From: a virus
Lineage: Duplodnaviria; Heunggongvirae; Uroviricota; Caudoviricetes
DNA length: 44,108 nt
Strand: one strand, 5' to 3'
IMG/VR virus record: IMGVR_UViG_2529292919_000018
Shown here: in pieces, positions 10,994 to 12,989 of the stretch
How the letters are laid out: each line of letters begins with the position of its first letter
Position numbering within the stretch: the stretch's first letter is position 1
Translations under genes and position numbers: made by a program
The notes under the pieces: model-generated
The model's input: only the letters and a program-made list of their open reading frames with translations
What the model was told of the DNA's origin: nothing
The model's database searches: none

Positions 10994-12367
10994 ATGAAAA
11001 GACTATATTATACCCATCATGATAGTCGAACCTTAAAACTTGCTATAGAAGGTGATGTTTCTGATAATGCGAATACTTTTACAGTAATTGTAGGTAAAAA
11101 TGGCGTTGGAAAAAGCAGATTGTTATCTCAGATTGCTAAAGACTGTATTCAAGATATTCATTTCTTGAAAACTTTTAATCCATTATTTGACAGAGAAATA
11201 ACACCAAAGTTAATTGCCGTATCTACCAGCCCATTCGATAAATTCCCTCCAGGGCGTAGGTCATTAAATCACCAAAGGAAAGAAAATAATTATCGCTATG
11301 TGGGTATGCGTGGAGAAGGCCCCTTCGGCGTATCAAATGCCGTATCCCTTTTATCTTCAGCAGCGAGAGGTTGGCTAGAGAAACTTGCTTATTCAGAAAA
11401 TCCTGCAAATTTACTCGATGTTTTTCATTCTATTGATTTTGAGCCCCATATAGAGTTTGTATTTAAACCAACTTACAACGGACCGGACACTCCTGACTAT
11501 AACTTCATTGGTGTATATTCAGATGAGATATTAACGGAAGTTAAGGAGTTATATTTAAAATACAATATAAAAATTGACAGGAAGAATATTGAGAGTCTCT
11601 TAAAGTTAAACTCCGAATCACGTCATGATATTTACGAAGCACTGGTTGAAATTAATCGATTTGAACCTGAACGTAGGGCTGTAACCTTGTCAGTCGATTT
11701 TACCAATGGTGAAACATTGGTTGGCTCGACTTATGCGAATAATTATTTTTCTAGATCAATTCTTAAACTTATGAACGCTGGCTTCATGAGATTGATGGAT
11801 ATGCGACTCATAAAAAAAAGCTATGGTCCCATGTCACTTAAACGTGCGAGCTCGGGAGAACAATGTTTATTAGTGATGTTGCTTGGAATTGCAGGGCATA
11901 TAACTGATGGTTCTATAATACTAATTGATGAACCGGAAATAAGCTTGCATCCTCGATGGCAGGAAGAGTTTATCATTATGTTAACAAAAGCATTTTTAAC
12001 TTACTCAGGTTGTCAATTCATAATTGCAACTCATTCACCACAAATAATATCCAATTTGCCGAATAAAGGTTGTTATATAACATCTTTGTCGAAAAGTTAT
12101 CTTTATAAAGCAAAATACTTTAGCAACCGGTCTGCAGACTATCAACTTGCGGAACTATTTGATGCCCCTGGCATTATGAATGAATACATTGCCAGATTAG
12201 CTTTCAATTTACTTTCAAAAGTTAAGACTGCTAAGTTAGTAACAGATGATAATTGGCGTGAATTAAAACAACTCCAGCTTCTCCTTGAAAACGTTAATAG
12301 TAATGACCCTATTAATGAACTCGTAAATTCCGTATCTCAGGTGTGTGAAATTTATGCCAAAAATTAA
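10994..12367 (+). CDS. ABC-type (AAA_15/21-like) ATPase, PtuA-like (Septu-like defence ATPase)
   Basis: 457 aa; Walker A VIVGKNGVGKS, signature-like LKRASSGEQ, Walker B/D-loop IILIDEPEISLHP, H-loop IIATHSPQI; AT-rich; 3' end overlaps downstream HNH gene. Confidence 0.8.
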   Translation: MKRLYYTHHDSRTLKLAIEGDVSDNANTFTVIVGKNGVGKSRLLSQIAKDCIQDIHFLKTFNPLFDREITPKLIAVSTSPFDKFPPGRRSLNHQRKENNYRYVGMRGEGPFGVSNAVSLLSSAARGWLEKLAYSENPANLLDVFHSIDFEPHIEFVFKPTYNGPDTPDYNFIGVYSDEILTEVKELYLKYNIKIDRKNIESLLKLNSESRHDIYEALVEINRFEPERRAVTLSVDFTNGETLVGSTYANNYFSRSILKLMNAGFMRLMDMRLIKKSYGPMSLKRASSGEQCLLVMLLGIAGHITDGSIILIDEPEISLHPRWQEEFIIMLTKAFLTYSGCQFIIATHSPQIISNLPNKGCYITSLSKSYLYKAKYFSNRSADYQLAELFDAPGIMNEYIARLAFNLLSKVKTAKLVTDDNWRELKQLQLLLENVNSNDPINELVNSVSQVCEIYAKN

Positions 12368-12989
12368 AAATCCAATTAGATTCAGCGCAGAGTCATTAGA
12401 TATTATTGAGAAAAAATTGTCTTCTCCAGATTTTAAGCATACCAACTGGGGAGATGATGATTTGCAAGTTCTCCGTGCAGAAATTAGAAATCATTACAGA
12501 GAAGAACAAAAGCTAGAATGTGTATATTGTCATGAGCCTATTGGGGTAAGAGCTGCACAAGCTGCTCCTATAGAGCATATTGTGCCAAAATCTCAATATC
12601 TATGTTTTATTTTTGAACCTAAGAATCTATGTGTAGTATGTCCTGACTGCAATGAATTCAAAGGTAAAAATGAAGTGTTATTTGAACCCGTAATAAATGG
12701 GGGGCGGCGCAAAAACTATCCAACTGCATCTGCATCATTTCGCATCGTTCATCCACATATAGATGATTATGAGATGCATATTATAAAAGCAAATCGTGTT
12801 TATGTGGACAAAACACCTAAAGGGCACTATACCATTGGAATATGTAAACTAAATAGATTTTTTCATTATTTTGGGATGTGTGATGAATTTGTTAATGATG
12901 CAAAAATTGCTGAGGCAAATGAAAATTTTTTCAAAAAAGGTAGTATTACTACTAATGAATTATTGGATGATGACATTCATTTGATTTAA
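12345..12989 (+). CDS. HNH endonuclease, PtuB-like (Septu-like partner nuclease)
   Basis: About 211-214 aa (GTG 12345 or ATG 12354); CVYCHEP...IEHIVPKS...CVVCPDCNEFKGKN = CxxC...H...CxxC HNH zinc-finger nuclease motif; overlaps ATPase stop. Confidence 0.8.
   Translation: MKFMPKIKNPIRFSAESLDIIEKKLSSPDFKHTNWGDDDLQVLRAEIRNHYREEQKLECVYCHEPIGVRAAQAAPIEHIVPKSQYLCFIFEPKNLCVVCPDCNEFKGKNEVLFEPVINGGRRKNYPTASASFRIVHPHIDDYEMHIIKANRVYVDKTPKGHYTIGICKLNRFFHYFGMCDEFVNDAKIAEANENFFKKGSITTNELLDDDIHLI

Follow-up and report, generated by a model that had tools for sequence, protein, structure and literature searches.

Does an overlapping pair of ATPase and nuclease genes within a lambdoid prophage constitute a working anti-phage system, and if so, of what kind, and in what company did it arrive? 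The question is raised by IMG/VR virus record IMGVR_UViG_2529292919_000018, a 44,108-nucleotide (nt) stretch of Caudoviricetes DNA (hereafter the window), in which an initial annotation had noticed the gene of an ATP-binding cassette (ABC)-type ATPase overlapping that of an HNH nuclease, and had likened the two to PtuA and PtuB of Septu. As argued below, the pair is very probably a standalone type I Septu anti-phage system with its own promoter, horizontally acquired and lodged in an early-region accessory slot of a lambdoid Escherichia coli prophage.

Assignment of the pair to type I Septu

The two overlapping open reading frames (ORFs) were recovered on the plus strand where the initial annotation had placed them. 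The ptuA gene (10994–12367) encodes an ABC-type (AAA_15/AAA_21) ATPase of 457 amino acids, in which all motifs quoted earlier could be located, namely Walker A GKNGVGKS at residues 34–41 (including K40), the signature SSGEQ at 286–290, Walker B IILIDEPE at 308–315 (D312/E313), and the H-loop ATHSP at 345–349. The ptuB gene (12354–12989) overlaps ptuA by 14 nt and encodes an HNH nuclease displaying CVYC (C56/C59), EHIVPK (H75), N91, and CPDC (C96/C99) followed by N100. While the HNH features described before stand, the accompanying length of 214 residues does not, being that of a mechanically called ORF beginning at GTG 12345. The start is assigned instead to ATG 12354, giving 211 residues, because four lines of evidence agree upon it: the RefSeq annotation, a cluster of 100% identical 211-residue proteins present on at least 1000 contigs, the start position of 39 of 40 aligned homologues, and the conserved overlap with ptuA (14 nt in Dickeya, Pseudomonas putida, and Klebsiella, and 17 nt in Pseudomonas aeruginosa).

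The family assignment proceeds from curated profiles, a comparison that the initial annotation had itself called for. The PADLOC PtuA profile PDLC00283 matches residues 2–455 over its positions 3–447 of 448 (E-value 2e-165), and the PtuB profile PDLC00325 matches residues 7–212 over positions 2–205 of 213 (1.1e-83), while Pfam contributes AAA_21 and AAA_15 in PtuA and an HNH domain in PtuB (23.9 bits, cutoff 21.4). Predicted folds concur. A Foldseek comparison of an AlphaFold2 model of PtuA (predicted local distance difference test score, pLDDT, 82.6; predicted template modelling score 0.80) with the PDB returned PtuA chains for 49 of the 50 best matches and an AriA chain at rank 42, all with a probability of 1.00, led by PtuA chains of retrons I-A, Ec83, and Eco7 together with those of E. 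coli Septu (8eea, 8ee4, and 8sux). Solved PtuB chains likewise match the predicted PtuB fold first, and both predicted folds resemble their solved counterparts beyond the generic ATPase and HNH cores. The Septu architecture proposed at the outset is thus upheld by full-length profiles and by the leading fold matches alike. Additionally, helices are predicted toward the C-termini of both proteins, three in PtuA (residues 394–456) and others at PtuB residues 155–195, and these would fit the interface between the PtuA C-terminal extension (PtuA-CTE) and the PtuB C-terminal domain (PtuB-CTD), described as a nine-helix bundle (PMC12819146).

Conservation among homologues is consistent with this assignment. 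Residues of the Walker A, signature, Walker B, and H-loop motifs are invariant across 42 PtuA sequences, and C56, C59, H75, N91, C96, C99, and N100 across 40 PtuB homologues, in both cases down to approximately 42% identity; the STSPFDKF block of PtuA and the HPH motif of PtuB do not vary either. Comparison with the copies in Klebsiella and Dickeya yields a ratio of nonsynonymous to synonymous substitution rates (dN/dS) of 0.13–0.22 for the pair and 0.13–0.14 for ptuA, and by this measure ptuAB is under purifying selection. Together with the profile E-values, these ratios place the pair far beyond chance. In kind it is already known, and any PADLOC or DefenseFinder run would call it; a full scan of representative proteins found 824 clusters related to the window PtuB at E ≤ 1e-3 and 20 at E ≤ 1e-30.

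The two genes also travel together. Five neighbourhoods, drawn from four genera, have ptuB directly after ptuA with a 14–17-nt overlap and differ in all other neighbours, so that, on the evidence of gene order, ptuAB is a conserved and self-contained two-gene unit with no conserved third partner. A nearby DUF5677 gene was considered as a third Septu gene and rejected, being absent from all other Septu contexts and accompanying a recombinase in a Septu-free P2-like prophage. The region upstream of ptuA (10787–10993, plus strand) contains a weak GAGAG Shine-Dalgarno sequence and a candidate sigma-70 promoter, the promoter-like site TAGACA-17-TAGAAT (10793–10821, plus strand). Both hexamers are identical in a Klebsiella prophage copy, although their flanks have diverged, and DNA homology to this copy begins at 10787, only 6 nt upstream of the -35 box. 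The promoter call is based on this conservation rather than on scan counts, and the module appears to possess a conserved promoter of its own, whose activity we infer. Homology to the Klebsiella variicola prophage copy, at 85% DNA identity, spans exactly 10787–13002 and delimits a horizontally exchanged module of approximately 2.2 kb on the plus strand (promoter, ptuA, and ptuB), around which no att-like repeats were found. Of 5426 complete E. coli genomes, 19 (0.35%) carry the module, always in the same island and at ≥99.8% identity; these belong to unrelated strains isolated from humans, animals, food, and seawater, and about ten IMG/VR prophage contigs carry it too. With its recognition, the known defences of the reference enteropathogenic E. 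coli (EPEC) strain E2348/69 and its relatives grow by one prophage-borne Septu, a gain of modest value.

Relation to characterised systems and competing explanations

Whether this Septu is canonical or diverged, a question that the initial annotation had left undecided, receives a twofold answer. By profile the pair is a canonical type I Septu, and the PADLOC definition of this type (PDLC00283/PDLC00325; the same full-length profiles and adjacent, co-oriented genes without a third component) differs from it in no respect; by sequence, its lineage is distant from every PtuAB characterised biochemically. The Septu of E. coli ATCC 25922 (PDB 8EE4/8EE7/8EEA/8SUX) has PtuA and PtuB of 465 and 243 residues, as against 457 and 211 here. 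Septu Ec^B88 and an E. coli ‘Septu I’ are standalone PtuAB pairs acting from their native promoters, for which Walker A, Walker B, and the HNH His/Asn residues are needed, and which upon infection cleave tRNA-Tyr in its variable loop with an abortive-infection-like outcome (PMC13096335; bioRxiv 10.1101/2022.08.21.504612). The 452-residue PtuA of Ec^B88 has K43/D316/H321 as compared with K40/D312/H319 in the window protein, its 219-residue PtuB begins with MREITKG rather than MPKIKNP, and the system is common in phylogroup B2-2 (bioRxiv 10.1101/2022.08.21.504612), unlike the rare prophage-borne Septu described here. Equal H75/N91 numbering had hinted that the window pair might be Ec^B88 itself, but this was rejected, as the published alignment shows a different lineage and the numbering is coincidental; that ‘Septu I’, from a tmn-synergy study, also belongs to a different lineage. 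Being so distant from the three E. coli PtuAB systems studied, the pair would offer a useful fourth comparison on the issue of tRNA-Tyr versus DNA as target and on that of triggers.

By analogy with these precedents a mechanism may be proposed. PtuA with bound ATP would oligomerise, and its C-terminal helical bundle would hold PtuB so that the nuclease is kept restrained; in standalone Septu of the ATCC 25922 type, an ATP-bound PtuA hexamer binds PtuB, and ATP restrains DNA nicking (PMC12819146, summarising the 8EE4/8EE7 work). Infection, perceived as a phage protein cue and/or dropping ATP, would then release or activate the HNH nuclease, much as a phage protein cue and falling ATP have been proposed to release PtuB (PMC12819146). 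The released nuclease would cut host or phage nucleic acid, which may be tRNA-Tyr or DNA; of the precedents, two E. coli PtuAB systems cut the tRNA-Tyr variable loop and another nicks supercoiled DNA in vitro. Phage replication would halt, and the infected cell would pay with growth arrest. Residues equivalent to the required ones are kept here (PtuA K40, D312/E313, and H319; PtuB H75 and N91), and the window Septu, standard and intact, is probably functional. Its oligomeric state, trigger, substrate, abortive phenotype, and spectrum of restricted phages would be those suggested by homology to characterised Septu.

Several observations weigh against this picture. The PtuA model attains low global template modelling (TM) scores against solved chains (~0.3), which probably reflects domain orientation or mobile arms in a multi-domain protein, and the PtuB model is of moderate quality (pLDDT 74.8, falling below 50 in the catalytic loop, residues 67–78). 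A phmmer comparison with solved PtuA aligns only an ATPase motif block of about 55 residues (8ee4, 3e-7), and PtuB has no phmmer match among solved PtuB structures; family profiles improve the similarity slightly, with the PtuB profile reaching E = 0.008. Because sequence similarity to solved PtuAB is so minimal, trigger, stoichiometry, and substrate could differ from those of the precedents, which moreover disagree among themselves (DNA nicking versus tRNA-Tyr). Counts of promoter-like sites in the region do not exceed those obtained from shuffled sequence, for which reason promoter and terminator scans were discarded as evidence. Decay is evident in the surrounding island, where the recombinase gene has become a pseudogene, IS481 has inserted, and the DUF1627 gene is truncated. 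Finally, a search of the open-access literature yielded no experimental test of this Septu subfamily, and no paper on Septu in E2348/69 or on these protein accessions.

Such decay raises the alternative that the pair is Septu by descent, now reduced to a non-functional relic. We consider this improbable, as neither ORF is interrupted or shortened when compared with all homologues, every catalytic residue is kept, dN/dS is low in comparison with the copies of Klebsiella and Dickeya, the Klebsiella copy shares the conserved promoter, and the copies in the 19 unrelated strains have hardly diverged. Somewhat less probable still is an explanation in which the pair mainly serves the prophage or its cassette, by acting as an addiction module or by attacking competing mobile elements, rather than host defence against lytic phages. 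The pair always resides on mobile DNA (prophages of E. coli and Klebsiella, and islands next to integrases or transposases), Pfam describes AAA_21 as a ‘putative AbiEii toxin’ domain, and PtuAB displaced from its retron is toxic to the host (PMC12819146). Characterised standalone Septu systems, however, protect against lytic phages from their native promoters without reported toxicity (PMC13096335; bioRxiv 10.1101/2022.08.21.504612), and both roles can coexist.

Hardly credible is the remaining explanation, that the genes represent some other ATPase–nuclease system, be it retron type I-A effectors, PARIS/AriAB, a Gabija/OLD-like system, or a housekeeping SMC/RecF ATPase beside an unrelated HNH gene, a case that the initial annotation had raised. 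Weaker matches to such proteins do exist (AriA, 2e-22; retron Ec78 PtuA, 2.4e-18; OLD-family endonuclease 6p74, 5e-6; SMC_N, 1.9e-5), but they are confined to Walker A or to the C-terminal ATPase motif block that these proteins share, and score far under curated cutoffs, whereas the PtuA/PtuB profiles match at full length and at least 140 orders of magnitude better. Specifically, PtuAB of type I-A retrons (Retron-Eco7/Ec78, Ec83) have homologous ATPase and HNH folds and provide the best Foldseek matches for the window PtuA, but the NCBIfam retron equivalogs reach only 66 bits for PtuA (cutoff 500; 2.4e-18) and 30 bits for PtuB (cutoff 150), and the window pair has neither the reverse transcriptase, nor the msr/msd RNA, nor the N-terminal extension of these retrons. 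Indeed, no Rfam retron family was found in the window, and no reverse transcriptase among the nearby annotated genes (DUF5677, the recombinase pseudogene, and IS481). The ABC ATPases of PARIS (AriA), Gabija (GajA), and OLD have the signature, Walker B, and H-loop block in common with PtuA, but matches extend over only about 80 residues, and their partner or fused nuclease is of the TOPRIM type, as opposed to an HNH partner (rather than TOPRIM/DUF4435) here. As for SMC/RecF/RecN, SMC_N matches PtuA over Walker A only (residues 26–47), its 24.7 bits falling short of the cutoff of 40, and a conserved chromosomal context is missing, the locus lying in a prophage island of 0.35% of E. coli genomes. 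Each of these candidates fails a defining feature, and profile and context tests refute them, leaving type I Septu as the favoured assignment.

The cargo island and its recombinase remnant

The setting of the Septu module bears on how it was acquired. As had been remarked at the outset, both genes are more AT-rich than their surroundings, with guanine-plus-cytosine (GC) contents of 35.2% for ptuA and 33.2% for ptuB, as compared with 37.2% for the island at 8700–13240 and 50.6% for the rest of the window. Comparison with island-free relatives delimits an AT-rich cargo island at 8750–13061 (no strand assigned) between a left phage flank, reaching up to 8749, and a right phage flank, starting from 13062; indeed, homology to the island-free phage mEp460_ev081 stops at 8749 and restarts at 13062. 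The island comprises a DUF5677 module (8796–10006), the remnant of a small tyrosine recombinase gene (10007–10620, plus strand), and the segment holding the Septu module (~10621–13061). In island-free relatives the slot is filled with different cargo, such as PD-T7-1, a homologue of which occupies it in phage mEp460_ev081 and in strain WCHEC035123 (PADLOC 7e-157), and on this account the position is a genuine variable cargo and defence slot. Composition and context thus support the earlier view of the Septu pair as horizontally acquired cargo, foreign in composition and lodged in a lambdoid prophage slot whose content varies. Its proposed replication-to-late-gene position is also borne out by the RefSeq annotation, which places a DnaT-like gene (6872–7912), a P-like gene (7905–8366), and the truncated DUF1627 gene upstream, and hokD, rem, DUF968, RusA, and the late genes downstream.

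The recombinase remnant is a decayed copy of a gene for a tyrosine recombinase of approximately 200 amino acids, annotated as a pseudogene at 10061–10581. RefSeq reports a frameshift and an internal stop, and comparison with three intact copies reveals an 82-bp deletion in addition to indels. It is preceded by the degenerate site TTCGCTCT (10006–10013) and by a hairpin sequestering the Shine-Dalgarno sequence (~10026–10063), and followed by a GC hairpin (10588–10609). The intact recombinase matches Pfam Phage_integrase (9e-18) without being the equivalog of a named recombinase, IntI and XerC/D included. About 800 of the 5426 E. coli genomes contain matches to its core of approximately 615 bp, with unrelated sequence flanking it on either side, and the core retains about 90% identity among contexts with different flanks. 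A one-genome-per-species collection contains at least 547 matching stretches, the best 80 of which are 60–98% identical in amino acid sequence across Gamma- and Betaproteobacteria, and viral contigs hold a further 70 relatives. A hairpin sequestering both the Shine-Dalgarno sequence and the start codon of the recombinase is conserved across distant taxa (at the same position in loci L019–L123) with compensatory changes, its arms pairing as CTCAAATCTCC/GGAGATTTGAG in E. coli and as CTTGTCCTCC/GGAGGACTTG in Pseudomonas. This pattern suggests that read-through transcripts are kept translationally silent, as they are in some insertion sequence (IS) elements.

In association with the recombinase, the borders of gene cassettes are marked by recurrent palindromic sites of ~24–30 bp, with arms GTCCGYT/ARCGGAC (GTCCGYT-N10-ARCGGAC) that exhibit co-varying changes and a YTCGCTCW spacer; some loci contain arrays of three to five. 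A direct comparison of WCHEC035123 with mEp460_ev081 reveals a clean 2.2-kb insertion, consisting of the recombinase and one gene, at a CTCGCTCA core, and the recombinase gene of four Pseudomonas-type loci is directly followed by a copy of the site, so that the sites bracket the recombinase alone. Intact cassettes are exemplified by L014 6000–8245, L106 7946–11280, and L013 6000–8740, and an intact recombinase by WP_023147793 of strain WCHEC035123. Site-bounded cargo includes a dGTPase (9e-144), the CBS-domain anti-phage protein DS11, and a protein whose C-terminal part matches PADLOC PDC-M01B, with PD-T7-1 lying in an adjacent cassette. The PD-T7-1 homologue is a 449-residue, full-length match found at L010 3480–4829 (phage mEp460_ev081, where it is annotated as hypothetical) and at L014 4388–5737, and palindromic sites of the recombinase cassettes flank the copy in L014, the one that was checked. 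One viral contig, L106, holds a complete site–recombinase–PtuA–PtuB–site unit, with PtuAB of a different Septu lineage.

Sampled cassettes often contain defence genes, among them two Septu lineages, dGTPase, DS11, PD-T7-1, SIR2, Nsn, bSEFIR, and Lamassu/PARIS components, and in a PADLOC survey of 71 distinct loci the downstream cargo matched many defence families. PADLOC-positive ORFs amounted to about 12 of 134 downstream of the recombinase versus up to 6 of 97 in controls 4.5–7.8 kb upstream (tallies added up from per-family counts). An enrichment specific to the downstream side was rejected, as both sides are defence-rich without a side-specific signal.

The DUF5677 gene (9113–9955; 280 amino acids, 35% GC) matches PHROG 4167 at full length and has no PADLOC match. 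DUF5677 accompanies the small recombinase in 55 E. coli genomes, and in the P2-like prophage L012 the two lie between the tail-fibre-assembly and tail-sheath genes without Septu; window positions 8796–10545 match cargo of a P2-like prophage. In an enterococcal study, a DUF5677 ORF was picked as a candidate for defence testing (PMC12632615). The gene is best regarded as candidate cargo or a candidate defence gene, as yet uncharacterised.

It is tempting, if rather doubtful, to view the Septu pair as sitting in a fossil copy of a recombinase-driven cassette system, whose cassettes enter prophage slots, islands, and plasmids across Proteobacteria. Sites in the window itself are degenerate or missing, the right island junction has no CTCGCTCA core, and about 225 bp of phage flank are missing there relative to mEp460_ev081. 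Furthermore, the recombinase does not occur next to other members of the window Septu lineage, and the link between the two is therefore specific to this island. Recombination by the small protein is itself a presumption throughout. Short palindromic sites separate cassettes in integrons and Xer-dependent pdif modules, to which these loci may be likened in having cassettes of one to two genes, arranged in arrays, with cargo that includes defence genes. They differ in that the recombinase is only ~200 amino acids long (the catalytic domain only) and is located inside the cassette, and in their sites of ~24–30 bp with YTCGCTCW. No description of small-recombinase cassettes was found in the open-access literature.

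The decayed recombinase is more unusual than the Septu beside it, and this context may matter more than the pair itself. A lambdoid slot and a P2 tail-gene slot appear to swap cargo around a small, widespread recombinase with defined sites, which could provide a mechanistic explanation for the exchange of defence genes between temperate phages and a new anchor for guilt-by-association discovery. If true, the cassettes would form an integron-like shuttle of immune genes between phages and chromosomes, and their uncharacterised cargo, the DUF5677 gene included, would be a source of candidate new defence genes.

The surrounding prophage

Beyond the island, positions 1–19355 are 99.7% identical to a prophage of EPEC E2348/69 inserted between potC and potB, rising to 100% over 8500–13300. 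Positions 19356–44108, from just past a tRNA cluster and ending near ydfJ, form a sheath-tailed late module (terminase, portal, tail sheath, and DNA circularisation protein), in which identity to prophages of other strains reaches 99%. On these alignments the window prophage is a mosaic of an E2348/69-like early region and a late module found in other strains, and the two halves were found joined in no complete genome of the collection.

Just beyond the island, an IS481 insertion (13295–14388) is bounded by a 6-bp target duplication, and its IS481-family transposase is encoded at 13244–14332 on the minus strand. The element, common only to the two E2348/69 assemblies, sits between the sok/mok leader (Rfam sok, 13134–13300) and the hokD coding sequence (14404–14559), and probably uncouples this type I toxin from its regulatory 5' region. 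The tRNA cluster consists of three phage-borne genes (19106–19355), with a CAT anticodon, Arg-TCG, and Arg-TCT, as compared with two in the E2348/69 annotation; the CAT-anticodon tRNA, labelled Ile by RefSeq, is probably a lysidine-modified Ile tRNA. As none of the three is a tRNA-Tyr, the prophage has no obvious decoy against a tRNA-Tyr-cleaving Septu. Elsewhere in this prophage, the DicF small RNA (4534–4585, minus strand; Rfam 76.7 bits) lies beside dicB, ydfD (a pseudogene), ydfC, ydfB, and ydfA, which identifies a Qin-like region of immunity and cell-division inhibition.

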